A stretch of 64,000 nt of DNA from Verrucomicrobiota bacterium (GTDB lineage Bacteria; Verrucomicrobiota; Verrucomicrobiia; Chthoniobacterales; UBA6821), in the NCBI GenBank assembly GCA_021413925.1, contig JAIOPL010000015.1, positions 41,409-105,408 on the forward strand, given 5' to 3'. The notes under the pieces are model-generated. The model searched no databases. It was not told where the DNA came from and was given only the letters and a program-made list of their open reading frames with translations. Both the position numbers and the translations under genes were made by a program. Shown piece after piece: positions 23,874 through 44,118 of this stretch (positions are counted from its first letter, which is position 1; the number at the start of each line of letters is the position of its first letter).

Positions 23874-24173
23874 ATGGATTTGAACGACGTACCGATGTCT
23901 TCGGATTCCCTGACGAGGGTGGCGCGGCGGTTATTCTGGTGGGTATCACCGACGGAGGCGCTACGCGACAGAAGCCGTTTCCTAGCCCAAGTCATGGCGC
24001 TGGGGACATGGGAGGATGTTGACGCTGTGCAAGAGGAATGTCCTGTGGAGGAGTGGCGCGATGCACTCCGTCGGGCGTCCCCCGGGGTCATCGATCCGAG
24101 AAGTTGGCATTTCTGGCATGTGAGGTTCGGGATGACTCCAATACCTCCGATGCCGGTGCGCCATTTGGGATGA
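23874..24173 (+). CDS. Putative antitoxin partner of the AbiEii-type nucleotidyltransferase
   Basis: ATG at 23874 (MDLNDVPMSSDSL...). ATGA stop/start overlap with the downstream toxin gene. Family not recognised with certainty. Confidence 0.5.
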   Translation: MDLNDVPMSSDSLTRVARRLFWWVSPTEALRDRSRFLAQVMALGTWEDVDAVQEECPVEEWRDALRRASPGVIDPRSWHFWHVRFGMTPIPPMPVRHLG

Positions 24174-28392: not shown

Positions 28393-28782
28393 GTGGTTTG
28401 CACGAGCAATATCGGCTCCCAGCAGCTGATGAGACCCACTCGGCTACCATTTGCAACACTGGAGAGGGCAGTACTGGCAGAGCTTCACCGGCACTTCAGG
28501 CCAGAACTGATTGGGAGGTTCGATGAGAAGATCGTTTTTAAGCCCCTCTCACCGGAGACCCGGAGGGAGATCGCGATGATCGTGATCGGCGAAGAAATCG
28601 AGCGTTATCGCAAGATGGGACTCGATCTCGCAGTGGATGCAGAAACCGTTGAAATGCTCGTCCGGAAGGGAATTACCAAGGGCTTAGGTGCCCGTCCCAT
28701 GAAACGTACAGTTCAGAAGTTTTTGGGGGATGTTGTTAGGGAGAGGATTAAGAACTTAGGGGGCGTAGACTCGGCCATGTAG
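28393..28782 (+). pseudogene. 5'-truncated Clp/Hsp100 AAA+ ATPase fragment (C-terminal D2-small domain only)
   Basis: Begins at VCTSNIGS (the sensor-1 TSN region). Continues FRPELIGRFDEKIVFKPLS...GARPMKRTVQKFL, matching the last ~130 aa of ClpA/ClpB-type proteins. Nothing upstream encodes the remaining ~700 aa. Confidence 0.7.
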
Positions 28783-29299
28783 TTAGAAGAATCTCAGTAA
28801 ATCCATGGGAGTCGAATGCTTCGAGATGAGTAATGGGAATTTGAAGACTCGTCGCGATAAGATTGGCATGATGCAATTCATTTTCTTGATGATGTTTGAT
28901 ATGAGCCTCATCAACATACACACCATCACGCTCTCTTAGGCGAAGGCTGATTAAATGAGGTAAATCATGGAAAACTACGATTGCATCGAGAGAAAGACGA
29001 TTGAAAAACTCAATCGAGATTTCAACGATCTCATTGATGTCATTCAAAAGAGTAAAATGACCATCTAGAATAAGTTTTTGACCAATTAACACTAGTTTCC
29101 TGTGAACTCCATGAATTAGGATTTCCTGATTTGCGTTAGTGTTTTTTTGTAAATTCGAATCGACTAAAGCATTCTCTAAAGATTCGTTCTTGATAATCTC
29201 ACTAGCGGTGAAATGTGGTATAAACAATTCTTTTCCGACCCGACTGCATATGGTCGTCTTACCAACACCATGTACCCCAGCTACAAATAATATACCCAT
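28748..29299 (-). CDS. P-loop NTPase / small kinase-like protein
   Basis: Walker A motif GVHGVGKTT at the N-terminus. 183 aa, AT-rich. Starts 2 nt after the upstream ASCH gene. Confidence 0.65.
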   Translation of the reverse strand: MGILFVAGVHGVGKTTICSRVGKELFIPHFTASEIIKNESLENALVDSNLQKNTNANQEILIHGVHRKLVLIGQKLILDGHFTLLNDINEIVEISIEFFNRLSLDAIVVFHDLPHLISLRLRERDGVYVDEAHIKHHQENELHHANLIATSLQIPITHLEAFDSHGFTEILLTTWPSLRPLSS

Positions 29300-29301
29300 C
29301 G

Positions 29302-29724
29302 TTAATTGAGATGTTTTTCCAAGCGGATCATGTCTTTTTTATTAACGTAACTAAAAGATTGAGGAGCCCGGAATCTCTTCCCAAAGATATTTATAGGCAG
29401 CAAAGGTTTTTTAAACGGGCGTACGGTGGTTAGCTCGATGCCGTAGGCCTTTTTCTTGCCATGAAGGTATGCGGTAAGTTTGTTTTTGGAGATTCCTCCG
29501 CCGACTTTAGCTGAAAGTTCGCATAATTTATTTGGTGAGGCTATCGTAACTTTTTTGACGCGAGCAACAGCAACTATATGTTGAACCGGGCTCGTAGCGT
29601 AAATCACGATTTTGTCGACAGGATACGCTGCCCAACAGCGCCTAAATTCAATACGCTTTTTACCTGAAAGAATCTGGTCAGTATAACACGGATGAATGGA
29701 TATCAGAATTGATCTACTTTCCAT
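29302..29724 (-). CDS. ASCH domain protein
   Basis: ILISIHPCYTDQILSGKKRIEFRR...KIVIYATSPVQHIVAVARVKKV is the classic ASCH (PUA-like) pattern. Confidence 0.78.
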   Translation of the reverse strand: MESRSILISIHPCYTDQILSGKKRIEFRRCWAAYPVDKIVIYATSPVQHIVAVARVKKVTIASPNKLCELSAKVGGGISKNKLTAYLHGKKKAYGIELTTVRPFKKPLLPINIFGKRFRAPQSFSYVNKKDMIRLEKHLN

Positions 29725-31189
29725 ATTTCATTATTAGATTAAGTGATTCATCTGAGATTTTAGTGATGCTTTGAGGGGACTTCTTTAAAACACAATTGCT
29801 TATGAGCCAATCGAGTGGTGCTTGATGTTCGAAGTGCTGAATTAAACGGAAAAGCATAACTCTTGTCTCTTTACATGCCATTAACTTTATTTCTTCCATC
29901 TTATAGACAGTCCGTCGCCTTACTTTGCTGGCGATTGCATCTGCGTCTTGAAGCGTATTATACGTTTCGACTACACCTAGACTTGTTACTGCTTGTTCAT
30001 CTTTAGAGCGATAAAACAATACGATATCTCCAGGAGACATTGTCTTTGTTGGAGAATTGCATAAATAAGCTAACTTAATTGCATTTCCTGCAGAATTATC
30101 TTGAGTGAAGAAATCTAATTGTTGATTTTTCTGATTATAGTCTGGGAACAGTATATTGTGAAATCTAGGTAGTATAGGTACGATAAATTTTCCTATAGAT
30201 GCATCTGATCGGAAATGCGGGAAGTATTTCTTTAGGTAAATGAAAGCATCGATCGCTTCACTAGGTGGCAGCACCGGATGCTGCTTTATATAAACTGCGT
30301 CTCTCCCATTAGAACCGGCATGGCTTCCAACTCGAGAAAAGCCGAAATCTTGCAGCATTTCAAAAAGGAAGTGATGTTGTTCGACATCTCCATGGATGAA
30401 GATATTTTGTATCTTATTAGCAGTTGCATAACGAAACGCTGCCTTTAAAAATAGCTCCCCGATCTTCCGTCCTCGCACTGATTCTCCCACTTTGAAGGTA
30501 CATAACTTGAGAGCTGCACCCGGCAACCTCATTCCCTCAGCTGTAATGACCTCATCGTCCTGCTGTGCATAAATACAAAGCGCTCCAATACGACCTGAGT
30601 CCTCCCACGAAACCCAGGCCCTATTCCCATCTTTGGCTTTGGCATGAAACCAGTTGTCAAATGTTGGGTATCCTGCTCTTAAGCTAGTAAAGAAATCCGT
30701 TTCAAGGAGTGGAGTAAGCGAATAAAGAGGGACTTCCTCAATGTTTGGAAGCTCGACAGCGACTTTTGAGTGTAGACGCCGAAGTAAATCCTCCGCCGTC
30801 TGGATAGTGTAAACCTGTTCGACCAGCCCATATTTTTTGGCCTTCTCGTGAATTCCCTGATCCTCTGTTACCAGGGCATGAACTGCAGAGCATTTTAAGG
30901 CGTAGAGTATCTCATTGTCCGCTGCATCGTTTGGATTTGTCTCTGGTGTATTCCAGGGAGAGGCGGGGGCACGGTCAAGCCGAGGGTATTGTTTGATGCG
31001 ATCCAGATTCTGCTTCAGCCGCTTCGGATCAGTATCGCGTCTAAAATCAGTTTCAGATGCAGGGTGATGGACTAGTTGATGCCCATTTTCGTTTGCCAAA
31101 CGCACAAAGTTAGCCAGACCTGTTTTCAACACATGACTCGAGTCCTCAAGGGGAATAAGTATATTCGTATCGAGAAGAAAGCGCATCAT
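29714..31189 (-). CDS. Three-domain protein: PIN-like nuclease, GNAT acetyltransferase, C-terminal PUA-like (EVE/ASCH-like) domain
   Basis: N-terminus MMRFLLDTNILIPLED...LVTEDQG carries PIN-type acidic residues. Middle section FKVGESVRGRKIGELFLKAAFRYA is GNAT motif A. C-terminus MSPGDIVLFYRSKDEQAVTSLGVVE is PUA-like. 11-nt overlap with the ASCH gene. Confidence 0.65.
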   Translation of the reverse strand: MMRFLLDTNILIPLEDSSHVLKTGLANFVRLANENGHQLVHHPASETDFRRDTDPKRLKQNLDRIKQYPRLDRAPASPWNTPETNPNDAADNEILYALKCSAVHALVTEDQGIHEKAKKYGLVEQVYTIQTAEDLLRRLHSKVAVELPNIEEVPLYSLTPLLETDFFTSLRAGYPTFDNWFHAKAKDGNRAWVSWEDSGRIGALCIYAQQDDEVITAEGMRLPGAALKLCTFKVGESVRGRKIGELFLKAAFRYATANKIQNIFIHGDVEQHHFLFEMLQDFGFSRVGSHAGSNGRDAVYIKQHPVLPPSEAIDAFIYLKKYFPHFRSDASIGKFIVPILPRFHNILFPDYNQKNQQLDFFTQDNSAGNAIKLAYLCNSPTKTMSPGDIVLFYRSKDEQAVTSLGVVETYNTLQDADAIASKVRRRTVYKMEEIKLMACKETRVMLFRLIQHFEHQAPLDWLISNCVLKKSPQSITKISDESLNLIMKYGK

Positions 31190-31362: not shown

Positions 31363-32637
31363 TTACGCTTTCACCATGGGTAGCTCCCCCCAGCTTGTCG
31401 TGTAGTGCGGGGAATGACGTTCGGCTTTCATCCTCCAGCCTTTACCTGATCGTTCTGTCCCCTGGGAGGCGCGGGTGATCACGGGGTTCTTGGGATCACC
31501 CATGCGGCGGTTGATCTCATCCACGATCTTGTCCACATCGATCCTGCCTGCTTGTGGCTGATCAAAGAGACTGGGTTGGTACTCATCCTCGGCAACGAGG
31601 TTGACCAGCTGAACCCCGGTCTTCTTGTAGCGGTAGCCTGGACGATAGATCTGACGGAGAAACTCCCTGGCAATAGTCATCAACTCCGCTGCTGAAGAGG
31701 TGGGTCTATCCAGCGTGATGGCAATCCCACGGGAATACTGGGGCTCATCCTTCTTGAAGCGGTTGGTCTGGAGGAAGACTTCCATCCTGGTAGCCAGTAG
31801 TCCGTATCGGCGGATCTTCTCGCTGGCGCGGGCAACATGGTTGGCAAGGGACTCTTCCAACTCCTCTAGGCCCTCTACAGGTCTTCCGAATGAGCGGCTG
31901 GCCATCACCCCCTTGCGATCAGGTGGCATCTCTTCCAGTTCCATGCAGGGAATGCCATTTAGTTCCCGGAGCATCCGCTCGCCTATCACCCCCATGCTCT
32001 TCCGGATTGCAGCTGGGTCAGCCTGTTTGAATTCCAAGGCGGTCTTGACGCCCATTCCCCTCAGCCGTTGAGCGAGGTTCTTCCCAACGCCCCAGAGGTC
32101 GCCGGTTTCCATTCCGGAGAGAATCCCATCCGGATCCCAGTAGCTGGTCAGATCAAAGACGCCCCCAGTGACAGCCTTGTTCTTCTTGGCGTGGCGGTTG
32201 GCTGCTTTGGCCAGCAGCTTGGTGGAACCAATTCCAATGCAGACGGGAATGCCAGTCCACTGCAGCACCTTGGCTCTGAGTGCTCGGGCCTGCTCCTCGG
32301 TGAATCCTGCTGAAACCTGAAGGAAAGCCTCGTCGATGGAGTAGACTTCGATGGCGGGAACCTCGTCCCTGAGGATGCTCATCACCCTGGCGCTCATGTC
32401 CCCGTAGAGTGTGTAATTGCTGCTGAAAACGTGGACCCCGTATTTTCGGATCACCGCCTGCGGTTCATGGAGGGGCGCACCCATGGGAATACCCAAGGCC
32501 TTGGCCTCGTCGCTGCGGGAGATGATGCAGCCATCGTTGTTGGAAAGCACCACCACCGGCTTCCCCATGAGCGCGGGGTTAAAGACCCGCTCGCAGGAGC
32601 AGAAGAAGTTGTTGCAATCGACGAGGGCAACTTTCAC
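31363..32637 (-). CDS. umuC: Y-family translesion DNA polymerase V catalytic subunit (UmuC-like)
   Basis: MKVALVDCNNFFCSCERVFNPALMGKPVVVLSNNDGCIISRSDEAKALGI is the canonical UmuC/ImpB N-terminus. 424 aa. Confidence 0.9.
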   Translation of the reverse strand: MKVALVDCNNFFCSCERVFNPALMGKPVVVLSNNDGCIISRSDEAKALGIPMGAPLHEPQAVIRKYGVHVFSSNYTLYGDMSARVMSILRDEVPAIEVYSIDEAFLQVSAGFTEEQARALRAKVLQWTGIPVCIGIGSTKLLAKAANRHAKKNKAVTGGVFDLTSYWDPDGILSGMETGDLWGVGKNLAQRLRGMGVKTALEFKQADPAAIRKSMGVIGERMLRELNGIPCMELEEMPPDRKGVMASRSFGRPVEGLEELEESLANHVARASEKIRRYGLLATRMEVFLQTNRFKKDEPQYSRGIAITLDRPTSSAAELMTIAREFLRQIYRPGYRYKKTGVQLVNLVAEDEYQPSLFDQPQAGRIDVDKIVDEINRRMGDPKNPVITRASQGTERSGKGWRMKAERHSPHYTTSWGELPMVKA

Positions 32638-32649
32638 GAAATTAAATCA

Positions 32650-33399
32650 CTAACTAACTGGCTTTTTTGCTTTGTTAATCCTTTTAGCAAGTTTTCCAAG
32701 ATGGATCCGGTTTTTCAAAAACAACTCTTCAAGTGCATGTTCCATCAGTTTGAATGAACTGATAACATCCTTCCTGGCAGAAATAGAATGTGCTCCATCA
32801 TTTCCTATCCACTTAATTGCTCTGAGCTTTTCTGCAACATCAGGCTTCTTTTCACTAAAAAAAGAAATTCTTTTATCAAGACATATTCTAACCCTCTTTT
32901 GTTTTTTATTTATAGCATACTTTTTAACCTTATAGTGATCCATTAATCTTTCCACAGCAATACGAACAGAATTAGCTGAAGATGATGGGCTTTTCCAAAA
33001 TTGAGAAAAGGCCTCAAGTAAAGCCAGAGAAACATCTTCTGGATATACTTTATGTAATTTAAAGATGTGTATTGGAGGAGTGAAATATTCCGGAAATAAT
33101 AAAGATGTGTATTGTTGTTGATTGGACAAGGTATTAATTTCCTCTTTAGTGTTAAAGTTTCCGACACAATATATATTTTCATTACATTCTTTATTTGGAC
33201 ATACAAGTCGTAAAAAAAATACTCCCGAATAATACTCAGGACTGCTATCAGCATACTCCATGCAAAACCAAGAATCAGCGGATTGAGCAAAATCAGGTTT
33301 TTTATTGTTAGCCCTAAGCTGAAAATCACACTTTGGGCATACAAATAAATTAAAATCATCGATGCTTAAGCTAGCCTTTAGTAATTGTGATTTTATCAT
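32650..33399 (-). CDS. Zinc-ribbon plus DUF4145-like protein inserted between umuD and umuC
   Basis: AT-rich. Cys pairs CPKCDFQL...CPNKECNENIYC. C-terminal IKWIGNDGAHS resembles the DUF4145 (R/K)xxGNxxxH motif. ATGA-type 4-nt overlap with the umuD stop. Confidence 0.6.
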   Translation of the reverse strand: MIKSQLLKASLSIDDFNLFVCPKCDFQLRANNKKPDFAQSADSWFCMEYADSSPEYYSGVFFLRLVCPNKECNENIYCVGNFNTKEEINTLSNQQQYTSLLFPEYFTPPIHIFKLHKVYPEDVSLALLEAFSQFWKSPSSSANSVRIAVERLMDHYKVKKYAINKKQKRVRICLDKRISFFSEKKPDVAEKLRAIKWIGNDGAHSISARKDVISSFKLMEHALEELFLKNRIHLGKLAKRINKAKKPVS

Positions 33400-33824
33400 T
33401 TAGCCTGATGGATGATGTAGGTAACAGATCCCCAGATCGTTAGTTCCTGATTCTCACCGACCTCAATGGGGGCGAAGGAATCATTGGCAGCCTCCAAGGT
33501 GATTCTGCCATTTACCTTGCGGAACCGTTTCACGGTGAATTCCCCGTCGATCATGGCCACCACGATCTGACGGTCAGTTGGGGTGACTGACTTATCGACG
33601 ATCAGGGTATCTCCTGTATGGATTCCAGCATCACGCATCGATTCCCCTTTGACACGGACAAGGAAAGTTGCGGCAGGATTGCGGATCAGTTCCTCGTTAA
33701 GGTCGATCCCCCGCTCGAGGTGGTCGTCTGCTGGGGATGGAAAGCCTGCCTCCACGGACGCAGAAACCAGCGGGAGCTTCAGGCTTGTGCGCTTTTCAAA
33801 AGGGACGGGTGTGGAGAGAGACAT
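33396..33824 (-). CDS. umuD: UmuD-like S24 peptidase (polymerase V accessory subunit)
   Basis: VEAGFPSPA contains the Ala-Gly self-cleavage site. GESM provides the Ser nucleophile and the Lys lies in FTVKRF. 142 aa. Confidence 0.9.
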   Translation of the reverse strand: MSLSTPVPFEKRTSLKLPLVSASVEAGFPSPADDHLERGIDLNEELIRNPAATFLVRVKGESMRDAGIHTGDTLIVDKSVTPTDRQIVVAMIDGEFTVKRFRKVNGRITLEAANDSFAPIEVGENQELTIWGSVTYIIHQAK

Positions 33825-33845: not shown

Positions 33846-36230
33846 TCAGATCTGTGAGAGCGATTCAATAGTTGCCGTCACATCTGCAAAAGTGTCTTTC
33901 CATTCTGATTCTACATCATAGTGGTGGGATACGAATCTCACACCGTCAGATTCCACACGGCTGAAAAAGTAGCAGGCATTTTTTGCACTACGAGGCGAAG
34001 GCCCAACCTGAATAAGAGGGAGAAGTTTTAAAGCTCCAGGGGAGCCCTTCTTATACAGATAAAGGCGCTCTACATCGAGCCAGATAGACATTGATCGATT
34101 CTCCTTCAGGAACTCGCTATTGCTCCCCATCTGAATTGAAACCTCATTTTCAAAGAGACCCCGTCTAGGGGTGCATGTTTGGGAGTGAATCAACTGCGTT
34201 TCTACCCATACATCCTCGAAGACCTCACGAAGCTTTTGGAGTTCTGCTAGAAGCATTTCATTCCTGTACCTTGCTTCCTCTGGGCTTACCAAGCCCCCGT
34301 GTCCTTTCCAGTCATTCCTCATTTTATTTGTGGCTGCAAAGATAGGTGAGAGCTCGGGACGGCTTAACATTCTTGGAAGAACCAGGGAGCGATCAGAGAA
34401 TAACTCAGCACAAAGGTCTCTACTGTTGGCGGTTTCCTCAGGGTCCTTCTTCTCTGCTAAGAGTTCTCTTGTTCTAGCGCCAAGAAACTCGCTGACGCAC
34501 TTCCATGTTCCAAATGTAGCGCGCCTGAATGTCAGGTTTTGCTTTTGCATGGCGTTATTGAGCCTTTCTTTGATGGGCGTGAAAATAGGCTCGTTAGAGC
34601 TATAGGCGCTCAGAAGAATAACGCTCAGAAACTCTGCTGTGCCCTCGAAGAAGTCGATCAGATGCTCGTATTTTGATTTGTAATCGTTACTCGGTGTGGC
34701 CTGCCATGCCCTCAGAATAGACGCCATTGGAAATGGAAGGGTCTCGAACCACTGATCGAGTCTCTCCGCTGCATGTTCTTTGACCCCGGTTCCAAGTCTC
34801 TTTGAAAGGACAGCTAGCTTTTTCTCAGCATCGGATGATGAGCTGGGATTTCCCCAAAGATCCCGGCGGATTTCACTCAACTCGCCTTGCAGCGCAAGCA
34901 TCGTGTTTTGCTCCTCAGCAATACGGGCTTCTACATCAAGAACCAGTTGTTGTGTTTTTAGATCAGGAACAAAAACTCCTATGTACTGTAGCGACTCCTT
35001 GTTGAGTCTCGGAATAGTTGATCCCTTTTGGTTGCTGTATCGCAGCTCTTTGCCGAGGTCTGAATTCAGGAACCTTGCTACAAAAGCCGCGCTTGATCGG
35101 CTGGGGTCAATTGTAACCTGAGCATAGTTGTGTGTCTTGATGGCAAGCTCATCAATCGATGTAACGACATCACGGCTTCCGATTAGGGGGATGTAGAGCG
35201 AGTTCTCTCTATCCTCGAAAGCAAAGTCCTTGTCGATTCGTCCAAGTGTAATGGATGTCGAGAGATCGCACAGGGGGATAGCTGCCCCCCCAAATCTAGC
35301 TTCTGCCTCCTTGAGGCGTTCTTCTGCCCTTATTGATGCAAGCCCTCTATATGTGGTCGGTTCAACAAAGCGGCCCATTTCGAGAGAGCCGCCCTCTTTA
35401 CGCAGGGTCATGTTCTCTAGGATCTGTGAGTTCATTTTTTGATCATTGGAGAGTTGACCCACAAACATTGGGCCGCTTTCAGAGCGCGTTATGATCACAA
35501 GAACAGTTGAAATCTCTGTATAGGGAGAAAAAGTCCCCTGAGGGAGGGTCAATGCCGCCTCTGCTTTCAGCCCTATTAACCCGAAATGTCTGAATACCGA
35601 ACGGTTGCTGTTAAAAAACTGGGGTGTAACGATAAATGCACCTATTCCGGTTTCCGGTATCTGTCGCATGGTGTGAACCATCAACAGATGTGCAAAGTCA
35701 TCACGAAGGGTGATTACCCCCTCCTCACCAGCATCTACCTCCAATGGTGAAGAATGCCGAAGACCAAATGGGAGAGATGAGATGATCAGGTCGTATTGTT
35801 TGAAATCCGACTCAAGCAATTGGTGTGTCCCCACACAATGCCACTCGATTTCAGGAAAGAGGATTTTTCCGAGGGAGTATTCACTCTGATTGACAGTAAA
35901 TGCGGAAGCGCTCCTCGCTTCACATAGAAGATTCACATGCCCAATTAGGGATCCGTTACCTGCCCAAGGATCGCAAATTGCTTTCGCATTTCTGATTTTT
36001 GCGAATTCTCCGATGAAAGTAGCTAGCCAGCTTGGGGGTTGGCAGACTCCAGCACCTCGTCCTATACGGCTAGAGAATAGCATTCTGAACTGTTGCACCT
36101 GATCCTCGGGTAATGAGGACATCTTCCTTTTAATAAATCTCGCGAGTTCCTCCGCCCCGAGGAACTCGATCCCTTTCATTTCATCCAGCATAGCTTTCTG
36201 GCTTGGAGTAAGTCTTCTATCAGGGTTCAT
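33846..36230 (-). CDS. Fusion protein: N6-adenine-type DNA methylase core, HsdS-like target-recognition segment, ~330-aa uncharacterised C-terminal domain with Rx5H motif
   Basis: Motif I is ICDPWAGNGSL. Motif IV is the variant DLIISSLPFGL. The TRD-like tail is GSTIPRLNKESLQYIGVFVPDLKTQQLVLDVEARI. The C-terminal domain contains NKMRNDWKGHGG. Confidence 0.7.
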   Translation of the reverse strand: MNPDRRLTPSQKAMLDEMKGIEFLGAEELARFIKRKMSSLPEDQVQQFRMLFSSRIGRGAGVCQPPSWLATFIGEFAKIRNAKAICDPWAGNGSLIGHVNLLCEARSASAFTVNQSEYSLGKILFPEIEWHCVGTHQLLESDFKQYDLIISSLPFGLRHSSPLEVDAGEEGVITLRDDFAHLLMVHTMRQIPETGIGAFIVTPQFFNSNRSVFRHFGLIGLKAEAALTLPQGTFSPYTEISTVLVIITRSESGPMFVGQLSNDQKMNSQILENMTLRKEGGSLEMGRFVEPTTYRGLASIRAEERLKEAEARFGGAAIPLCDLSTSITLGRIDKDFAFEDRENSLYIPLIGSRDVVTSIDELAIKTHNYAQVTIDPSRSSAAFVARFLNSDLGKELRYSNQKGSTIPRLNKESLQYIGVFVPDLKTQQLVLDVEARIAEEQNTMLALQGELSEIRRDLWGNPSSSSDAEKKLAVLSKRLGTGVKEHAAERLDQWFETLPFPMASILRAWQATPSNDYKSKYEHLIDFFEGTAEFLSVILLSAYSSNEPIFTPIKERLNNAMQKQNLTFRRATFGTWKCVSEFLGARTRELLAEKKDPEETANSRDLCAELFSDRSLVLPRMLSRPELSPIFAATNKMRNDWKGHGGLVSPEEARYRNEMLLAELQKLREVFEDVWVETQLIHSQTCTPRRGLFENEVSIQMGSNSEFLKENRSMSIWLDVERLYLYKKGSPGALKLLPLIQVGPSPRSAKNACYFFSRVESDGVRFVSHHYDVESEWKDTFADVTATIESLSQI

Positions 36231-36251: not shown

Positions 36252-39200
36252 TTATCCGACAGCCCGTGTTTTTACGTCATCAAGGATTGAAATAATCTGG
36301 TCAACCTGTGCTGGTTGAAAAACTCCATCCACGCCAAGGGGATTAAAATCAGTATAAGGTGATTCATACAGGCGACCTGCATCCATGATTCCATGTTCAG
36401 TCAGGTGATTCACTATCTCATCCAGAAACTCGATCTGGTTGGCCGTAAGGGCCTGCGTTGAGACAAAGGAATCCAATGCCCCTTTTGCCGCCTCACGATC
36501 CATGCCGACCAGTGAGCGAACAAAAATGCCGAGGCCATGGTTTTCCGCTTTGGCCTTCGCTACATCGGCAGCAGTCCCAATTCCATTCTCGGTCAAGATG
36601 CGCTCCAGCTCACAAAGATCAGAGGCCGTGAGCGGTTCATTGGTCCTCAGCTTGTGGATGGTAATGTGATCCTCATGCTCTCTCAGGAATCGCCTGGCCT
36701 TTTCACGGAAGCGTTCAAAATCCTGCCCCCCGACGACCCCTGGCAGCTCAATCGGCTTCTCTTCGCCCTTCTCATCCTCGAAGTCCGTATAGATCGGCTT
36801 CCGGTTCTTCTTTTCGATGAGCTTAATGAGCAACCGAAGGCGCTTCCTGACATTTTCCAGCAAAGGCACGGTGACATGCTCCCAGTATTCCTCCGTCTGG
36901 ATCTGTTCGATCAGGACCATATGATCCCGTACCATCGGGATGCTTTCCTTCTCTTCAAGTAGCCCCGCTATGGCGATGACTTGATCTCGAAGACGTATAA
37001 AGCCTGGCCCCGTCGTGAGAACCGCCAGCTGGAGATTCAGGATCAACAGATCAAAGCGTTTGGCCTCCTCCTCGTCTGTTTCGATTTCTGATGGAAGTCC
37101 CGCAACCTGACGAGCCAGTTCCTCACCCTGTTCATTCGTGAGGACATCCCAGGAGCTAGGTTCCACATACTTCTCGATCAACCTCCGCTTGGGCCGCACC
37201 ACAAAATTCTCCAGATTCATTCCACTCACCTCCTCATGGAGCAGACCAGCGGTTTCCTTCCGCAGTTCCTCCAGGGCGGTGTTACCCTCCTTGCCGCGAA
37301 CCTCGGCACCGATCTTTTCATCGAGCTCAGCAATTATCTGAAGGCGCTTCACAAAGAGTTTCTTACCGAGCGAAGGAGCAACATTGCCCTCGGTGGCTTC
37401 AGGATTCTGACTGAAGAACTCTAGGTTCTGGCAAAAGTCGAAGATGTAGAAGAACTCCTTGTTCTGCCCGGGTCCGAAAAGATCAGGGCAGAGTCGCGTT
37501 CCTCGACCAATCATCTGCCAGAATTTCGTCTTCGAGCGCACGAGCTTGAAGAAAACGACATTTAGCACTTCTGGGACATCGATTCCGGTGTCGAGCATGT
37601 CTACCGAGATAGCGATATGGGGTGCGCCATCTTTGACGGAGAAGTCCTCGATCAGATCCTGAGCATACTCCGTCTTAAAGGTAATCACCCTGGCGAACTC
37701 TCCCCTGTAGTGTGGGTAGTTGGCATTAAAGCGCTCCCCGATGAACTCAGCATGGGCCTGATTCTTGGCAAAGATGATCGTTTTCCCTAGCCGGTCGCCA
37801 CCAGCCACCTTCTGACCATGGGTCATCAGGTGCTCCAGCACTTTATCGACTGTGTCCTTGTTGAAGAGCCACTTGTTCACCATCTCAGCCTCCACTCGGG
37901 CTGGAGTGTTCCCCTCCTCATCCCACTCTAGGGCATCCCATGCCTCCTTCTCCTCCTCAGAGAGATCATCGTAGGAGATTCCCTCTCTTTGGAACTTCAG
38001 CGGCACTGAGACCGCCTTGGGCGGCACCAAATAGCCATCCTTCACTGCTTCCTCGAGAGGGTAGGCATCCGTGGGAACTCCATTCTCCAACTCAAACAGA
38101 CTGTAGGTATTCCGATCCACCTCATCCTTTGGCGTCGCAGTCAGTCCGACCAAAAGAGAGTCAAAGTAGTCGAAGATCGCCCTGTATTTCTGGAAGACCG
38201 AGCGATGCGCCTCATCGATGATGATCAGGTCAAAGTGCCCTGGGCCAAATCGTCGCTGACCATCCTTCGTCTCATCTATCAGACCCATCATCGTCGGATA
38301 GGTCGACACATAGACGCGGCCCTCCGTCTCCTTCTCGGTCACGAGATTCACGGGCGCAGAGTCGGGCAGATATGCCTTGAAGGCATTCACAGCCTGCTTC
38401 ACCAGAGCGATACGATCGGCTAGGAAGAGAACCCTTTTCGCCCAGTTGCAGCGCATCAGGAGATCCGAAAGAGCAATCACTGTACGAGTCTTGCCTGCCC
38501 CAGTGGCCATAACGATAAGGGCCTTGCGATCATGATCCTTTTGGAAGGCATCACCGATACGTCGGATGGCCCTCTCCTGATAGTAGCGCTCGACGATCCC
38601 CTTGTTAATCTCGGTCCCAGCAAGCGGCTTCCTTGAGGATCGGCGCTGAATCATCAGCTCCAGCTCATCCTTCTTGTAAAAGCCCTGCACAGGTCTCGGA
38701 GGATAGCTCGTGTCATCCCAGATCCAGTGTTCATAGCCATTGGTGTAGAAAATGACCGGCCTGCGCCCATACATCGCCTCCAGACAGTCGGCATAGAGCT
38801 TCGCCTGTTGCTGGCCGACACGGGGATCGCGCTTCGTCCGCTTGGCCTCTACGACGGCGAGAGGGAGCCCGTCATCTCCCCAGAGGACATAATCGACGAA
38901 TCCCTCACTCTTCTCATTGGGCATCCCTGTCACAGGAAACTCCCGATCACGCTCCTGATCGAGAGCCCATCCGGATTCCTTCAGCAGCAGATCGATGAAG
39001 TAGTCCCGAGTCTCTGCTTCCGAGTAGTCGTGATCATCCTCCTGTTTGGCATTTGCCCTCCTGGCTTCCGCGACCTCAGCCCGGAGACGCTTGAGTTCAT
39101 CATCGAGCCCTGCACGCTCCTCCAAGAGGGTTGAGAGTTTCTCATCCTTTTGCTTCAGATCCGATTCCAGCTTCTGAAGTTGTTCAGGATTCTGGGGCTC

Positions 39201-39647
39201 AGCTCCTGAGACTGCGGCAGCCTTCGGTAGCAGCTCCGGATTGAATGCAAGATCCGCAGCAGGCTTCGATCCCTTCCCATATGTCTGGACCAGCCAGTAG
39301 CTCAGATGAAAGAGTTCCTTCACCGCCATCAGGGCATCGTACTGCCGGATTGGTTTATGGCTGTGGACTGCTAGGTTGCCGACTTCCCTGATCAGTTGCA
39401 CCTTGGCAAAGATCATTGGGCCAACTGTATTCCGGAAGCTCGGCTCATGAATCAGAGCGCTGAGATTTTCCTGATAGGGCAGCTTCAGATCCCCATCGTT
39501 CTTGTAGATCCAGTGGACTGCGAGTTCCAGTGACCTCCTCGCATAGAAGCAGGCCGCCCTCGGGTCGGGATAGACCAATGACTCTGACTTAGACGCTGCG
39601 TCCTGCAGAGCAGTCCATTCTGTGGCTAGGAAGGAGAATTGGCTCAT
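36252..39647 (-). CDS. hsdR: Type I restriction enzyme R subunit (N-terminal DUF4145-like, HSDR_N, SF2 helicase, EcoEI-type C-terminus)
   Basis: IREVGNLAVHS is DUF4145-like. EAETRDYFIDLLLKESGW is HSDR_N. Helicase motifs MATGAGKT and IIIDEAHRS. C-terminal LTANQIEFLDEIVNHLTEHG. Confidence 0.9.
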   Translation of the reverse strand: MSQFSFLATEWTALQDAASKSESLVYPDPRAACFYARRSLELAVHWIYKNDGDLKLPYQENLSALIHEPSFRNTVGPMIFAKVQLIREVGNLAVHSHKPIRQYDALMAVKELFHLSYWLVQTYGKGSKPAADLAFNPELLPKAAAVSGAEPQNPEQLQKLESDLKQKDEKLSTLLEERAGLDDELKRLRAEVAEARRANAKQEDDHDYSEAETRDYFIDLLLKESGWALDQERDREFPVTGMPNEKSEGFVDYVLWGDDGLPLAVVEAKRTKRDPRVGQQQAKLYADCLEAMYGRRPVIFYTNGYEHWIWDDTSYPPRPVQGFYKKDELELMIQRRSSRKPLAGTEINKGIVERYYQERAIRRIGDAFQKDHDRKALIVMATGAGKTRTVIALSDLLMRCNWAKRVLFLADRIALVKQAVNAFKAYLPDSAPVNLVTEKETEGRVYVSTYPTMMGLIDETKDGQRRFGPGHFDLIIIDEAHRSVFQKYRAIFDYFDSLLVGLTATPKDEVDRNTYSLFELENGVPTDAYPLEEAVKDGYLVPPKAVSVPLKFQREGISYDDLSEEEKEAWDALEWDEEGNTPARVEAEMVNKWLFNKDTVDKVLEHLMTHGQKVAGGDRLGKTIIFAKNQAHAEFIGERFNANYPHYRGEFARVITFKTEYAQDLIEDFSVKDGAPHIAISVDMLDTGIDVPEVLNVVFFKLVRSKTKFWQMIGRGTRLCPDLFGPGQNKEFFYIFDFCQNLEFFSQNPEATEGNVAPSLGKKLFVKRLQIIAELDEKIGAEVRGKEGNTALEELRKETAGLLHEEVSGMNLENFVVRPKRRLIEKYVEPSSWDVLTNEQGEELARQVAGLPSEIETDEEEAKRFDLLILNLQLAVLTTGPGFIRLRDQVIAIAGLLEEKESIPMVRDHMVLIEQIQTEEYWEHVTVPLLENVRKRLRLLIKLIEKKNRKPIYTDFEDEKGEEKPIELPGVVGGQDFERFREKARRFLREHEDHITIHKLRTNEPLTASDLCELERILTENGIGTAADVAKAKAENHGLGIFVRSLVGMDREAAKGALDSFVSTQALTANQIEFLDEIVNHLTEHGIMDAGRLYESPYTDFNPLGVDGVFQPAQVDQIISILDDVKTRAVG

Positions 39648-39662: not shown

Positions 39663-40466
39663 CTAGGTCCTAATTTTGGGAACTTTTACAACGACATCCA
39701 GCTTTCTGTGGATGAGGGATATCAGCGATAGGTAATCAGCCGCATCATCCTCACCCTCCCAAAGTATCTTTGGCTCATGAGCCAAAGGGTTTCTTACTGC
39801 GGCAAAACAGCCTTTAATTAAAGCGGCAAAACCCTTGTGTTCCGATTGTTCCGTCTCAGTCCGAAGGGAATTGATTGCTAAAATCGGGGAGTCAATGGAG
39901 AAGACGACATCAATGAGCTTGGCCCCGTCATAATGGAATCCTGAAAGGTCTCTGATACGCTGAGCGAGCCCCTTTGACGCCTCAAAAACGGCATGAAAAT
40001 AGTTCTCTTGCAAAAGTTCTGCCTGACAGTACTTCAGCACCTCTGCATGGATCTTTCTTCCTTCAAACTTTGTGCGTATCGTGCGAGCTCTTTTCTCGGC
40101 TTCATCAAGGGTGCGTGCAGTGTCGCATTTCCTCATCTTTCCATCTTTCCCATATTCTAACCCAGAGAAGGAAAGAAGTGCGTTTAGCTGCTGCCGATGG
40201 GATTCAAACTCTTCATTGCGCCCAATAAACCGCGCAGGGATTAGGAAGGATTGGATAAAATCGATAATCTTGTTGGCGCAGGCATGCTGATGCTGGGTTT
40301 TAAGAAATACCCAATAAATCCTACGCCATTTTGTTGATTCACCCGACAAGTCTTCAAGACTGCGATCCTGGAAAACACGGGTGATGTCGGTTCCTGAACC
40401 ACAATTACCGAGTAGTTTGGCAAGGCCCTCAATCTGGCCTTCGGGAAATGGCGGGATCTTACTCAT
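39663..40466 (-). CDS. TIGR02391/Abi_C-like protein with Rx4H (HEPN-type) motif
   Basis: The C-terminal half FHAVFEASKGLAQRIRDL...GFAALIKGCFAAVRNPLAHEP matches the TIGR02391 pattern. That family is documented as associating with restriction loci. Confidence 0.65.
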   Translation of the reverse strand: MSKIPPFPEGQIEGLAKLLGNCGSGTDITRVFQDRSLEDLSGESTKWRRIYWVFLKTQHQHACANKIIDFIQSFLIPARFIGRNEEFESHRQQLNALLSFSGLEYGKDGKMRKCDTARTLDEAEKRARTIRTKFEGRKIHAEVLKYCQAELLQENYFHAVFEASKGLAQRIRDLSGFHYDGAKLIDVVFSIDSPILAINSLRTETEQSEHKGFAALIKGCFAAVRNPLAHEPKILWEGEDDAADYLSLISLIHRKLDVVVKVPKIRT

Positions 40467-40566
40467 GATAACGCCTTTGATTTAGGAAATCGGTGGTGAC
40501 GAGCTTGGATTTCTTGTTTTGGGACATAGAGGGAGAATCAATCAATTGTGAACAGAGGATGGTCAA

Positions 40567-43500
40567 TCAACCAAGCTCTCCAGAATCGCCCGGCTTGGGA
40601 TCAAGATTCTGGAACTCGAATCGCGCTAGGTTGATTAACACGGATTGTACCTCCACGGCCTGCTTTTTGGCATCCTCACTAGAAGCGAGACCATTGCGTA
40701 GAATCATTTTGATCTCCTCATCCATTCCCCACCAGTAAGGGATCTCTTTTTCTCTATTCTTGTCTGGAAAGACAATTCTATGGAAGCAGTCCATAGCCAC
40801 CTCCGGATAGTTGGCTGAGTATTCGGCCAGCGGCTTGATCACCATGAAGTCATGGCCATCGCCGATGAACGGGCGCAAAATCAGAACTCTTTGAAGAATC
40901 TTCACCGTCCACTCGGCATCCAGCTGCTGGGCGTCCACCCAGGTCCAGAAGCCCTCCAACTCTACAAGTTGGTCGCTTTTGATTCCGGATTGTTCCAGTT
41001 CTCTCAACCGCCACTCCATGAGATTACAAAAACGCTCTTGGACATCATTAGGGACCCCCTCTTTGGTGGTTCTCATACTCCTGCCGATAAAAGTGAGCAG
41101 GTGAGCCTTAAGAGCGACCGTCCCATTCTTGTAGAACCGATCTAGTAGATTGCCTGATGCATCTGGTTGATCAGGAAGGGGAAGATTTCCCCACCAGTAG
41201 TAAGCGGCCAGATGGTGGACGAGACCCTCGCCGGGATCCCACTGACGGGAATCCTTTTCACGAGGATCCTGAGAGATCGATCTGATTGCTCTGACATACT
41301 CTTTCCCAAGAGCCTCAAACGCAGTTTTCGTGGCCCCCTGCATCGTGACGAAGCAGCTCCAGACAGCATTCCTCTCTGCTACACGATCAGCAGGGAAGAG
41401 ATCATCGAGGTGCGTCTCCACCCATTCACGATGGAAATGGAGGAGCATGCCCATCTTTTCTCCGTAGATTCCACGGCCAGCCAGCGTCGGCTCCGCCCTG
41501 AGACGCGCTTCCAGAAGCTCAAGCACGCGCTTCTTCAAGTCATCCCTCTGTGCCCCATCCTCAGAATGAAGAACTCGATCCAGGTCAAAGAGAGCACGCA
41601 TAGCCACCAACCGCGTTGTATTCAGCGATGTCATGGCCAGCTCTCCTGGTGACTCCGTATCCTTTCCATCCTTCTCGGGATCCGGATGTTGTAGGAGCAG
41701 GGCGATACAGCCCAGCAACTGATCCCATGCAGTGCTTGGGAAGTTGACCTCCTTCTTGGAGATCGCTCCTTCCAGACCTCTGGCAATCTCGATTCCCAGG
41801 TTGCGATTCTCAGAGCCAGCCAGCTTCAGGATCACCCCATGGATGGCCCATGCAGTTTCTGTGAGCAGTGAAGACCAATCCAGCGGAGTGCCAGCGAAGG
41901 CTGCCTCGAAGCATCCTTGCAAGATGCTCAGATACCGATCAACAGAGAGACGCTCGTGATCGGATAGGATACGATACTTTTGAATGTCTTTGAGAAAAAA
42001 CTCAGGCTGCTTGAGAGCAGCACTTTTCAGAGCCCCCTGCAGACCCCACTCATCAACCTCATCAAGGTGCTGTTTCTGCTTCCATGCCCTGATTTCAGAA
42101 AGGACCCAATCGTTCGGCTCAGTGAGAATGGTTTCTACCGTAAACGGACTTTCATTCGGCATGATTTGCACATCGCTCTTCCAAGACCTAAAGGCTGGAT
42201 GCCCTGGAGTCTTGAAATGCTCATGCAATTCATTGAATCGTTCCTGCCATTGTTCGGGCAGTTTCCCATTCAGGAGAGAGAGTTGCTGATATTGCCAGTA
42301 ACGTTTCCAGATATCGAGAGTTTCCTCGTCGGGAGGGGCTCCCTCGTGGTCCTGCATGTAATATTCAATGCGAGTAGAGAGATCAGGCCCTCCCTCGATC
42401 CATCCTAAAATCCTATTTTTGTCTTCTTCGACGAGACTGTCGAATTTCTCCTCGAGCATGACGAACCACTCGTGAGGGTTATCCGCTCCCAAAACAGCAC
42501 CTGCATCCAATTCATTGTTAACCTGTTGGATTGCCCCAAATTCCCGAATTAGATGGAGATTCAATCGCTTAAAAATCAGCCAAGGGAAGGCCTTTAATAT
42601 TTCAACTGCTTCATTTAATCGCGCAGGCCGTCCTGATATAACTCTTTCAGATAAGTCGCGGATTCCTATTACGAGATATTCCCTGTGGTCGTAGTCTCGA
42701 AGCTGATCACTAGGCTCTACGGAACCCATCCATATTTCTGAGTAATCATCCCACTTTCTGTCTTCAGAACCTTTATTTACGCCTGAATGAGTGATCGCAT
42801 CCGATAAGAGATCACAGTAAATCTTCAGGAGATTCAGTACATCATCAGGCTGAACCTTCAGAGTTATTTCAGAAACTAAAGATTTGTAATCATATAGATC
42901 CCATATCGAATCGGTTTTTGATATTCTAACAAGTTGATCGAGATCACTTTGAGTATCTGAATCAGAATTTTCCTCTAATTCAAAGTCGAGACGTAGTACT
43001 GCGAGAATTAGATCCGCGACATCTTTGGTGAGACCACTTGAGATCAGATGAGCAATAAAGTTTTGGTATGATAAATGGGATCGCCCAGGATTTCTTTCTT
43101 TCAACCATGCTTTTGCATAGGAGATAAAGTCCGTAGCTAGATTGATTGGAAGTTGGCTTGCAATACCTAGCAGCCTCTGCTGGATGAATGGCGTTGCCCT
43201 CGTTGCTAGCTTCAGAGCAGCTTTCTGTGCTGGATCAGGCGTTTCGACTACAAACTTTTCCAAGAAAAAAACTTCGGGAAGTAGTGGGTTTGGTGAATCT
43301 GGATTAGGACCATATCTTTCCCCAACATCAAACCACCCGTTTTCCAAGAGAATATGAACCCACTTACTATCAGTAATGCATTCAAAGAAGAATACGCGCT
43401 CTGCCCATTGATCAAAAAGAAGATAGATTGCCTCTAATGTATCCCTTGATGGCAGAAATGTTAGTTCTACAATAGTTTTTATCTCATTAAACTTAGCAGG

Positions 43501-44118
43501 TTCATTGGGCCGAAGATATTTTAGAAGAATATTTTCAAGGCTCTCAATTTGTTTATTTAGTGGAAACCTAGATGCCCTAGACTTATGATGAGCATAATCA
43601 GTAAACCGATCATAGAGCTCCTTCCAACTGTTTATATCATCCTCAAACGAGGCTGGCTTAGGACGACTTTTCTGTAGTTTCCTGAGAGTTTTTTCAGCTT
43701 TGGCCAACTTCGGCCCTCGTTCGTTATCAATCCACGTACAAAAATCAAGGAATGAAGAAATAAAGCCTGATAGTATATTGCTATCTAAGTCTTTAAATGA
43801 AGGTTTCTTTTCAAGAAAATAGCTTTCATATTCACTTCGCAGGTTGTTTTCAACATATTGCCCCATGCTAATTCCTCCGCCTTCTCTTCCGATCCAGAAG
43901 TTAGCTTTCTCTATGACTTCCCGAAATCCATGGGCTGATAATGCTTCAAAATCAGAGCATTTGCTAAAACTAACCTCCAATGCCCCTCGATATATATGTG
44001 CTATTCTATTATCATGGTGACTCAATAAATTGAAAACTAATAGAGTTTTCCCTTCTAGTGAAAATTTTCTGGCTCCATCAGTATTACTATCTCCAAAGTC
44101 TGAGGGTTCAAAACTCAT
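40567..44118 (-). CDS. Large (1183 aa) predominantly alpha-helical protein of unknown function embedded in the type I R-M operon
   Basis: Uninterrupted ORF with a 4-nt overlap onto the hsdS stop. No Walker, nuclease or other catalytic motif is recognisable. The Trp/Leu-rich periodic sequence suggests a helical-repeat architecture. The 5' third is more AT-rich. Confidence 0.7.
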   Translation of the reverse strand: MSFEPSDFGDSNTDGARKFSLEGKTLLVFNLLSHHDNRIAHIYRGALEVSFSKCSDFEALSAHGFREVIEKANFWIGREGGGISMGQYVENNLRSEYESYFLEKKPSFKDLDSNILSGFISSFLDFCTWIDNERGPKLAKAEKTLRKLQKSRPKPASFEDDINSWKELYDRFTDYAHHKSRASRFPLNKQIESLENILLKYLRPNEPAKFNEIKTIVELTFLPSRDTLEAIYLLFDQWAERVFFFECITDSKWVHILLENGWFDVGERYGPNPDSPNPLLPEVFFLEKFVVETPDPAQKAALKLATRATPFIQQRLLGIASQLPINLATDFISYAKAWLKERNPGRSHLSYQNFIAHLISSGLTKDVADLILAVLRLDFELEENSDSDTQSDLDQLVRISKTDSIWDLYDYKSLVSEITLKVQPDDVLNLLKIYCDLLSDAITHSGVNKGSEDRKWDDYSEIWMGSVEPSDQLRDYDHREYLVIGIRDLSERVISGRPARLNEAVEILKAFPWLIFKRLNLHLIREFGAIQQVNNELDAGAVLGADNPHEWFVMLEEKFDSLVEEDKNRILGWIEGGPDLSTRIEYYMQDHEGAPPDEETLDIWKRYWQYQQLSLLNGKLPEQWQERFNELHEHFKTPGHPAFRSWKSDVQIMPNESPFTVETILTEPNDWVLSEIRAWKQKQHLDEVDEWGLQGALKSAALKQPEFFLKDIQKYRILSDHERLSVDRYLSILQGCFEAAFAGTPLDWSSLLTETAWAIHGVILKLAGSENRNLGIEIARGLEGAISKKEVNFPSTAWDQLLGCIALLLQHPDPEKDGKDTESPGELAMTSLNTTRLVAMRALFDLDRVLHSEDGAQRDDLKKRVLELLEARLRAEPTLAGRGIYGEKMGMLLHFHREWVETHLDDLFPADRVAERNAVWSCFVTMQGATKTAFEALGKEYVRAIRSISQDPREKDSRQWDPGEGLVHHLAAYYWWGNLPLPDQPDASGNLLDRFYKNGTVALKAHLLTFIGRSMRTTKEGVPNDVQERFCNLMEWRLRELEQSGIKSDQLVELEGFWTWVDAQQLDAEWTVKILQRVLILRPFIGDGHDFMVIKPLAEYSANYPEVAMDCFHRIVFPDKNREKEIPYWWGMDEEIKMILRNGLASSEDAKKQAVEVQSVLINLARFEFQNLDPKPGDSGELG

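Follow-up and report, generated by a model that had tools for sequence, protein, structure and literature searches.

The DNA considered here is a 64,000-nucleotide (nt) stretch of a Verrucomicrobiota contig (hereafter the window, on whose numbering all window coordinates are given), in which a 794-codon open reading frame (ORF) lies on the minus strand within a type I restriction operon, with its ATG at 36230 and its stop codon at 33846-33848. On balance, the product of this gene, referred to below as the fusion protein, is best regarded as a single-chain sensor-effector of type I restriction, of the restriction guardian or decoy kind. The first ~490 residues would represent an inactivated and fused type I methyltransferase (MTase) core, made of an HsdM fold, one HsdS target recognition domain (TRD), and a coiled-coil spacer, and the last ~305 residues would form an autonomous, highly conserved effector domain, the C-terminal domain (CTD). 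That the ORF is a real gene, and not a chance reading frame, follows from its 242 homologues at E<=1e-5, most of them full-length proteins of ~790 amino acids (aa) with ~50-55% identity, and from the 1,295 representatives (50% clusters) that a CTD profile built from aa 466-794 recovers at E<=1e-3, 635 of them at E<=1e-30. The named proteins among the 242 homologues are all labelled 'hypothetical', and most of the full-length members listed are ~760-800 aa long and end with the CTD. Members are distributed over at least eight phyla (Verrucomicrobiota, Planctomycetota, Acidobacteriota, Proteobacteria, Bacteroidota, Cyanobacteria, Chloroflexota, and Actinomycetota), and the CTD was absent from the phage genome collection that was searched.

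A full-length AlphaFold2 model of the fusion protein (30-sequence alignment, mean predicted local distance difference test score (pLDDT) of 82, predicted template modeling score of 0.49), together with profile searches and alignments, divides the gene as follows.

33846-36230, minus strand: the whole ORF, comprising predicted pseudo-HsdM, TRD, helical hairpin, and CTD (ORF, homologues, and AlphaFold2 model)
35991-36230, minus strand: variable helical N-terminus (aa 1-80), shorter than HsdM_N, with no Pfam match, and the least conserved part of the protein
35331-35990, minus strand: HsdM-like Rossmann fold of the gamma-class N6-adenine MTases (aa 81-300), predicted to be inactive (Foldseek, PADLOC, and motifs)
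35946-35975, minus strand: motif I loop CDPWAGNGSL (aa 86-95), with D87, P88, and G93 kept in 93-99% of 102 relatives
35763-35780, minus strand: degenerate motif IV SSLPFG (aa 151-156), in place of (N/D)PP(F/Y/W)
34962-35330, minus strand: single HsdS-like TRD (aa 301-423), unusually conserved (PADLOC Specificity_I, Foldseek, and divergence comparison)
34767-34961, minus strand: HsdS-type coiled-coil spacer hairpin (aa 424-488, with helices at 424-460 and 462-487; AlphaFold2 model)
34200-34766, minus strand: helical half of the CTD (aa 489-677; AlphaFold2 model and alignment)
34293-34328, minus strand: Rx5H motif NKMRNDWKGHGG (aa 635-646), with an invariant R-N-x4-H-x-G
33849-34199, minus strand: beta-rich half of the CTD (aa 678-794; AlphaFold2 model and alignment)

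The best match of the full-length model in a Foldseek search of the PDB is 7eew_A (E=1.6e-15 over 556 columns), followed at 1e-9 to 1e-7 by HsdM subunits (3ufb, 2okc, 3lkd, and 5ybb), M.TaqI, and CamA; this list is saturated by MTases, and the alignments to 7eew, M.TaqI, and CamA cover both the MTase and the TRD. Because Foldseek finds these proteins, the first ~490 residues can be described as a fused HsdM fold and TRD. In the CTD, the model places helices at 491-677 and strands at 678-779, followed by a final helix. A preliminary description of this DNA had placed a 794-aa protein at 33846-36230 without stating its strand, and had quoted from it the peptides CDPWAGNGSL, SSLPFG, GSTIPRLNKESL...VPDLKTQQLVLDVEARI, and NKMRNDWKGHGG, all of which are present in the ATG-to-stop ORF, the HsdS-like stretch GSTIPRLNKESL...VPDLKTQQLVLDVEARI corresponding to aa 403-436. 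Its division of the protein into a start resembling a gamma-class N6-adenine methylase that has motif I and an atypical motif IV, an HsdS-like recognition segment, and an uncharacterized helical-plus-beta C-terminal domain agrees with the Foldseek results and motif statistics, the Specificity_I match, and the AlphaFold2 model, respectively.

Sequence comparison is consistent with the Rossmann MTase fold indicated by Foldseek, with the PADLOC profiles mad2 (9e-9) and MTase_I (4e-5) giving weak but consistent matches to the MTase part, the Pfam N6_Mtase profile scoring 14.6 bits, under its cutoff of 20.4, and a profile of the fusion family finding 7eew_A at E=1.5e-6. BsaXI was also recovered by sequence comparison, and Pfam detects no HsdM_N domain in the fusion protein. 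Membership in MADS was considered and rejected, as the mad2 and MAD5 matches represent weak, generic similarity to MTases and S subunits.

Motif statistics were drawn from 102 diverse full-length representatives with 23-47% identity to the fusion protein, with three relatives that have bona fide HsdM domains serving as an internal reference for motifs II and III. Motif I (D87-P88-x-x-G-x-G93) is retained in 93-99% of these relatives. In motif IV, conservation is limited to P154 (95%), position 155 is commonly aromatic or hydrophobic, and the catalytic N/D position is occupied by a mixture of residues (C22, D14, V12, I12, M8, and N7 among the 102); the canonical (N/D)PP(F/Y/W) occurs in two of the 102, and the fusion protein has serine at the N/D position. 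In addition, the acidic residue of motif II, which is acidic in ~27% of the family, is replaced by T112, and the GD of motif III is GT. In gamma-class N6-adenine MTases, losing the N/D of motif IV abolishes catalysis. Because that residue is gone and the acids of motifs II and III are missing, the MTase module of the fusion protein is predicted to be a catalytically inactive pseudo-enzyme.

The same motifs bear on the possibility that the fusion protein is an active DNA MTase with an unusual SLPF motif, which would add a second methylation motif to the host genome and use the CTD as a DNA-binding extension. Such a reading can draw on the retained DPWAGNG of motif I, on the prevalence of P154 and of an aromatic or hydrophobic residue at 155, on the non-canonical 'GVPF' of the nearest solved relative, 7eew_A, which according to its PDB title was crystallized with S-adenosylhomocysteine (SAH), and on the NCBI annotation of actinobacterial relatives as 'N-6 DNA methylase'. 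It is nonetheless very improbable, as S stands here in place of the N/D contacting the target amino group, with C, V, I, or M across the family and no conservation, the acids of motifs II and III that contact S-adenosylmethionine (SAM) are missing, the TRD does not diversify, and purifying selection is concentrated on the CTD. The missing SAM-contacting acids are also the reason for which SAM-depletion sensing was set aside for the fusion protein, a role that is possible for those family members that keep the acids of motifs II and III. SAM depletion is listed in a 2025 review as a signal without a known sensor.

The recognition segment is identified by the PADLOC profile Specificity_I (8.8e-8, aa 350-453), with Pfam Methylase_S reaching only E=0.048, and it is followed, as in HsdS, by the two helices of the spacer hairpin. 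The segment differs from HsdS in comprising one TRD rather than two, and in not being hypervariable. The extent of this difference is evident from median pairwise identities over 11 operons (55 pairs) in which hsdM, hsdS, and hsdR are intact and accompany the fusion gene. The TRD of the fusion protein is 56% identical, its MTase-like domain 45%, its helical CTD 66%, and its beta CTD 65%, whereas the adjacent HsdS TRDs are 15-16% identical, and the neighboring HsdM and HsdR proteins 27% and 21%, respectively. Because the TRD of the fusion protein is conserved at 56%, against 15-16% in the HsdS TRDs, it is not a specificity determinant, and these identities indicate that what it recognizes is something constant, and not the DNA target of the type I system in which it resides. 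By the same measure, the gene is a conserved cassette that has been placed in very different type I systems. A specific guard complex of the PrrC-EcoprrI kind is also unlikely, since divergence among the neighboring Hsd proteins greatly exceeds that of the fusion protein.

These values must also be weighed against the view that the fusion protein is an accessory or regulatory type I subunit, an alternative M/S-like protein that assembles with HsdR or HsdM and modulates restriction at the level of alleviation, assembly, or targeting, the CTD serving for protein interaction. In favor of such a subunit, the gene is packed closely between hsdS and hsdR in operons, with overlaps of 4 nt or gaps of 8-21 nt, and the retained HsdM fold and HsdS coiled-coil spacer are the elements that mediate type I assembly. 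With the fusion protein 45-66% conserved against 21-27% for HsdM and HsdR, co-evolving interfaces are unlikely. Furthermore, there is no HsdM_N, some loci are solo, the CTD is fused to a retron reverse transcriptase (RT), Sel1 repeats, and DUF5655 in proteins unrelated to restriction-modification (R-M), and the invariant R-N...H-x-G resembles a catalytic site and not an interface. An accessory subunit is thus quite unlikely.

The CTD is the most conserved part of the protein and, judging from the alignment, its functional core, with purifying selection concentrated there and not on the MTase. Fifty-two positions are conserved at >=90% across the 102 relatives, 40 of them in the CTD, and R638, N639, H644, and G646 are invariant in all 102, as are W494 and W576. 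The conserved features of the helical half are W494, LPFPxASIL, FFE529, FGxW576, R588, R638-N639, H644, G646, and R668, and those of the beta half are G702, F707, P738, P746, ACYF at 752-755, and SYH at 768-770; E529 is the only near-invariant acidic residue of the domain.

Despite this conservation, the CTD of the fusion protein has no match in Pfam at E<=10, nor in NCBIfam, PADLOC, or PHROGs, where weak MTase- and HsdS-type matches are confined to the N-terminal 465 aa. Searches of PDB sequences with the single sequence, a close-homologue profile, and a diverse profile returned no significant match to the CTD, and a Foldseek search of a CTD-only model against the PDB and BFVD gave nothing below E=0.16 and no HEPN match; the model used for this search had a poor beta half (pLDDT ~30) and is weaker than the full-length model. 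No PD-(D/E)xK, HNH, GIY-YIG, or PLD signature is found in the CTD, and no part of the fusion protein matches a nuclease family.

The preliminary description had noted an Rx5H arrangement of the kind that defines HEPN RNases. In a survey of HEPN domains, the defining features are an Rx4-6H motif with a polar residue (N, D, or H) directly after the R, located where a helix ends and passes into the following loop (PMC3710099). The sequence R638-N639-D-W-K-G-H644 has this form, with Rx4H spacing in some relatives (for instance, RNYHAHSG), and in the AlphaFold2 model helix 627-641 ends in R638-N639, H644 lies in the loop at 642-649, and a further helix follows at 650-671. Two sub-significant matches fall on the motif. 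One of 26 diverse CTDs matches Pfam HEPN_Swt1 at E=0.014, though the member responsible was not found among six candidates tried, and in a PDB profile search the RNdwkGHgG of the CTD was aligned to RNSV-AHGG of the CRISPR-associated 8y7f at E~1. Both are leads, not proof. Profile-profile alignment with hhalign of the CTD against the Ymh protein, the DUF4145 protein, and the HsdR N-terminus of the window gave probabilities of ~1%, a comparison that is uninformative for single-sequence targets.

Thus, of the earlier suggestion, the motif and its predicted helix-loop position stand, with R and H invariant, and neither a non-catalytic family nor any other known family claims the domain; that the domain is HEPN is not confirmed by fold and profile searches, and it is a candidate member of that group. 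The likely active site would comprise R638, N639, and H644, with E529, which suggests metal-independent, HEPN-like RNase chemistry, a proposal to which we assign close to an even chance. Metal-independent chemistry is favored over a DNA nuclease because the CTD has a single conserved acidic residue and no DNase signature.

Evidence that the CTD acts independently of the MTase-like module comes from its reuse in other architectures, which were inspected among the best 150 of the 1,295 CTD-family representatives. In P0178 (663 aa, L049 8001-9992), a retron-type RT with an intact YADD is followed by the full CTD signature, the C-terminal half containing PFPLASIL, HFFEA, RNKWTGHGG, CYFYNR, and VSYHF. 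PADLOC matches this protein to RT-Protease_XI (8e-137), RT-TIR_XII (1e-130), and RT-Toprim_I-C (5e-127), in each case over the RT part only (aa 14-362), and P0178 appears from its sequence to be an undescribed type of single-gene retron effector. Its gene adjoins a YoeB/Phd toxin-antitoxin pair on a 34-kb contig; an Rfam search for an msr RNA beside it gave no match, a result that is uninformative given the diversity of retron non-coding RNAs. P0194 combines Sel1/TPR repeats with the CTD, P0122 combines DUF5655 with the CTD and occurs on five contigs without nearby hsd genes, and in P0127, P0130, and P0137 the CTD lies behind unrelated N-terminal regions. Finally, in P0150, P0155, and P0206 (956-981 aa) a genuine HsdM, with HsdM_N, N6_Mtase at E down to 3e-83, NPPF or NPPW, and DPxCGxG, is followed by a TRD and the CTD; these proteins may be the ancestral, still-methylating form of the family. 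The gene for P0150 (L045 1-3897) is preceded by a restriction endonuclease gene encoding Mrr_N and Mrr_cat domains. Because one conserved CTD is found behind varied sensor-like N-termini, including in the retron effector slot, it is predicted by guilt-by-association of architectures to be an autonomous, swappable effector-type module. Variation of the N-terminus in this way is the pattern seen in defense effectors such as HEPN, TIR, and Toprim.

These architectures also bear on an alternative in which the fusion protein restricts DNA directly, in the style of type IIG or type IV enzymes. Its N-terminal module would bind DNA (perhaps holding a modified base in the inactive adenine pocket), its CTD would be a novel DNA nuclease that cuts foreign DNA, and the host would survive. 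The layout of MTase, TRD, and extra domain resembles that of fused R-M enzymes, as reflected in the Foldseek matches to M.TaqI and CamA and the sequence match to BsaXI, the CTD also occurs in relatives whose HsdM has an intact NPPF or NPPW, including the one beside the Mrr nuclease, and type IV enzymes often adjoin type I loci (Ronin paper, bioRxiv 10.1101/2023.04.06.535777). This alternative is nevertheless unlikely. A CTD with one near-invariant acid (E529) and no PD-(D/E)xK, HNH, GIY-YIG, or PLD signature is a poor candidate for a DNA nuclease, the invariant R/N/H set is better suited to metal-independent RNases, and a conserved TRD implies a single invariable target, against cleavage of which no cognate methylase would shield the host. 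Moreover, the position of the CTD behind a retron-type RT, where it replaces a protease, TIR, or Toprim domain, points to an abortive-infection effector.

Genomic context was assessed by scanning related loci for Hsd proteins with iterative hidden Markov models, tblastn with the window's own Hsd proteins being too insensitive. The reference-genome set comprises 34 loci with the fusion ORF, several of which are uninformative, with one flank short. In 24 of the 34, hsd genes lie within 6 kb, and among immediate neighbors hsdR is downstream in 12 and hsdS upstream in seven. Consistent with this arrangement, three distinct long metagenome contigs have the order hsdM-hsdS-fusion gene-hsdR, with 4-nt overlaps or 8-nt gaps. 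In other genomes, the gene usually has hsdS before it and hsdR after it, and a position following hsdR is the minority arrangement, found at one of the 34 loci (L025, from Acidobacteriota, with the M-S-Ymh-R-gene order of the window). In L025 a Ymh gene separates hsdS from hsdR, and in L026 one immediately precedes the homologue of the fusion gene. Overall, embedding of the gene in type I operons is strong but not obligate.

A cultured example is found on a Gordonia plasmid, where hsdM-hsdS-hsdR is followed by an 'N-6 DNA methylase' with the CTD and then by a SIR2 gene; the M-S-R-gene order is that of the window, and the copy of the fusion gene is split into two coding sequences. Streptomyces plasmids carry a solo version of 943 aa, with AEIPY at motif IV and RRNTWSGHSG in the CTD, beside a Pycsar effector. 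Family members go by the names 'hypothetical' or 'N-6 DNA methylase', the latter given by NCBI to the actinobacterial relatives. The Streptomyces and Gordonia plasmid genes that bear this label (L051 7507-10338 and L052 7801-10320) have a degenerate motif IV and the CTD, and the label is, from the state of the motif, probably a functional mis-annotation. Relatives called 'N-6 DNA methylase' despite the loss of the catalytic motif pose an annotation problem for REBASE-style methylome predictions.

In the window itself, the fusion gene follows a complete type I system, all of it on the same strand.

45308-46849, minus strand: hsdM (canonical NPPF), upstream of the fusion gene and co-directional with it
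44115-45311, minus strand: hsdS (two TRDs), upstream of the fusion gene and co-directional with it
36252-39647, minus strand: hsdR, EcoAI/EcoEI-like, with an N-terminal DUF4145 (Pfam ResIII, EcoEI_R_C, HSDR_N, and DUF4145)

The gap from hsdR to the ATG of the fusion gene is exactly 21 nt, a umuD-like gene starts another 21 nt past the fusion gene, and no terminator-like sites were seen on the minus strand from hsdR to umuD. The preliminary description had likewise reported a complete hsdMS in the operon, as the coordinates bear out, and a position directly downstream of hsdR, which holds for this locus and is not a trait of the family. The co-directional array reads, in order, hsdM, hsdS, a gene for a 1183-aa Dsr1-C-like protein, Ymh/TIGR02391, hsdR, the fusion gene, umuD, a zinc-ribbon/DUF4145 gene, and umuC.

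Several genes of the array encode modules that are themselves of defense type. The two genes between hsdS and hsdR (39663-44118, minus strand) encode the 1183-aa protein, which resembles the C-terminal region of Dsr1 without its SIR2 domain (PADLOC 3e-21), and a 267-aa Hypoth_Ymh/TIGR02391 protein that matches PADLOC PD-Lambda-3_B (E=4e-78). The DUF4145 of HsdR, which is of HEPN type, is an N-terminal fusion covering aa 2-211 (Pfam 1.8e-10; PADLOC PDC-M16A 2.5e-21). A 249-aa protein encoded at 32650-33399 (minus strand) joins a Cys4 zinc ribbon (CPKC...CPNKEC) to DUF4145 (Pfam 1.7e-14), with a weak PADLOC match to PD-T7-4 (5e-5). This layout is that of RAZR, a ring-activated zinc-finger HEPN RNase (PMC13017515). 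The gene splits the umuDC pair, with umuD at 33396-33824 (4-nt overlap) and umuC at 31363-32637, an unusual interruption. With Ymh, the HsdR N-terminus, the candidate CTD of the fusion protein, and the RAZR-like gene, the array would hold up to four HEPN-type or HEPN-like modules. Outside it, further defense-island-like content of the window comprises an AbiEii toxin gene at 24038-24847 (plus strand) and a co-directional trio at 28748-31189 (minus strand) encoding a 183-aa AAA_17 kinase-like protein, a 140-aa ASCH protein, and a 491-aa GNAT+EVE protein; a 900-aa ORF at 48825-51527 (plus strand) has no Pfam match at E<=1e-3.

As a guardian or decoy, the fusion protein would function as follows. 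The N-terminal module would no longer methylate, and would keep the shape that binds DNA or DNA-mimic anti-restriction proteins. In the uninfected cell it would hold the CTD inactive. The trigger would be an attack by a phage on type I restriction, or foreign DNA engaging the pseudo-M/S module; other candidate triggers are foreign or unmethylated DNA and, in members that keep the SAM-binding motifs, SAM depletion. Activation would then free, assemble, or dimerize the CTD, leading to probable cleavage of RNA and to cell arrest by abortive infection, as a backup for type I restriction. We infer the toxicity of the CTD, its RNase nature, and the trigger from these comparisons. The earlier idea of a sensor/effector or decoy gains support from the CTD taking the effector position behind a retron-type RT and from its linkage to other sensor-like domains; nothing was found in support of the accompanying term 'modification-dependent'.

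A number of points weigh against this interpretation. Of the 34 loci, at least three lack hsd genes although 6 kb or more of sequence is available on each side, so any guarding of a type I enzyme encoded in cis is not a strict requirement. The CTD coexists with an apparently active HsdM in some relatives, and is thus not necessarily confined to the role of a suicide toxin. Retention of motif I means that some SAM binding may persist. No fold or profile support places the CTD in HEPN or in any nuclease family, and its beta half is well modeled only in the full-length run. Finally, divergence of the neighboring Hsd proteins argues against a specific guard complex. Of the two forms that the proposal can take, a decoy like Ronin would be a better fit than a PrrC-type guard bound to its cognate enzyme, because the TRD is constant, catalysis is lost, and the neighbors are too diverse for a dedicated complex. 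A decoy for DNA mimics is plausible because the sensor keeps the type I core shape that is hit by Ocr and ArdA, and 7eew_A was crystallized with Ocr. More doubtful is the general proposal that the family is a widespread class of one-protein 'decoy guardians', in which a dead HsdM-HsdS mimic baits DNA-mimic anti-restriction proteins or reports the failure of restriction, and so releases an undescribed, divergent HEPN-like RNase with a beta domain that is also used behind retron RTs, Sel1-repeat sensors, and active methylases.

Comparison with known systems places the fusion protein near several of them. PrrC is an anticodon nuclease with a C-terminal HEPN effector, encoded in the type IC EcoprrI hsd locus, and provides a further layer of defense once type I restriction comes under attack (PMC3710099, PMC12707154). 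The fusion gene is likewise an addition to an hsdMSR operon, and combines a predicted sensor with a predicted C-terminal effector that has an R...H motif. Whereas PrrC has an ABC-ATPase as its sensor and is held inactive by binding EcoprrI, the fusion protein would use its pseudo-HsdM/HsdS part as the sensor, its CTD does not detectably resemble PrrC or HEPN families, and the Hsd partners are too divergent for a specific complex; searches of Pfam, NCBIfam, and PADLOC found no ABC/AAA or PrrC matches in the fusion protein.

Ronin is an HsdMS decoy whose MTase activity is dispensable, which baits Ocr and ArdA, kills through the RonA toxin, and frequently occurs in linkage with other restriction systems (Silas et al., bioRxiv 10.1101/2023.04.06.535777). 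What would be shared is a type I M/S-like bait for anti-restriction proteins coupled to a cell-killing effector. Ronin has separate, canonical hsdM and hsdS genes and a 61-aa membrane toxin, usually without hsdR, whereas in the fusion protein, compared here with Ronin by description, M and S are fused, degenerate, and joined to a ~305-aa soluble CTD, normally inside a complete hsdMSR operon, with no separate hsdM/hsdS and small transmembrane RonA of its own. The fusion protein would thus act like PrrC and Ronin in its proposed logic, yet belongs to neither family.

The closest structural relative, 7eew_A (the 'intact MTase' of V. vulnificus YJ016, with Ocr and SAH), is also a single chain with an HsdM fold, a TRD, motif I, and a non-canonical motif IV, 'ISGVPFG' being aligned at that position; it differs in its length of 638 aa, in having no CTD, and in being only distantly similar. 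Type IIG and other fused R-M enzymes pair an active MTase with a recognizable endonuclease domain, a combination that the fusion protein does not show. Single-gene retrons share with P0178 the same retron-type RT, the CTD standing where they carry a protease, TIR, or Toprim domain; unlike them, the fusion protein itself has no RT, and its CTD matches no known retron or Abi effector profile. A precedent for pairing of an RT with a HEPN effector is AbiA, in which an RT is followed by a C-terminal HEPN, and which is found with R-M operons (PMC3710099). With the HEPN RNases (RAZR/DUF4145, Ymh/TIGR02391, Swt1-like, and Csm6/Csx1), the CTD shares an invariant Rx4-5H with N after R, predicted to lie at a helix end and loop start, a predicted helical domain with an insert, a single conserved acid, association with R-M, and varied sensor fusions. 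It differs from them in its larger helical domain (~190 aa), always coupled to a conserved beta domain of ~115 aa, and in LPFPLASIL, FFE, FGxW, and ACYFF, which are unlike any described HEPN family.

No description of the architecture or of the CTD was found in the literature, Pfam, NCBIfam, or PADLOC, in line with the preliminary view that this is not a described system. To our knowledge, known R-M guardians are few and mostly E. coli curiosities, namely PrrC, PARIS, Ronin, and retron Ec48. Against this background, what is new is that a predicted pseudo-enzyme bait is fused to an effector, that the CTD recurs as an apparent retron effector, and that the family is large. The CTD is predicted to be a new, highly conserved effector-type domain that is missing from Pfam and PADLOC, and, if the proposed function is correct, the fusion protein would be a common, single-gene, and genetically tractable guardian that carries bait and effector in one polypeptide.

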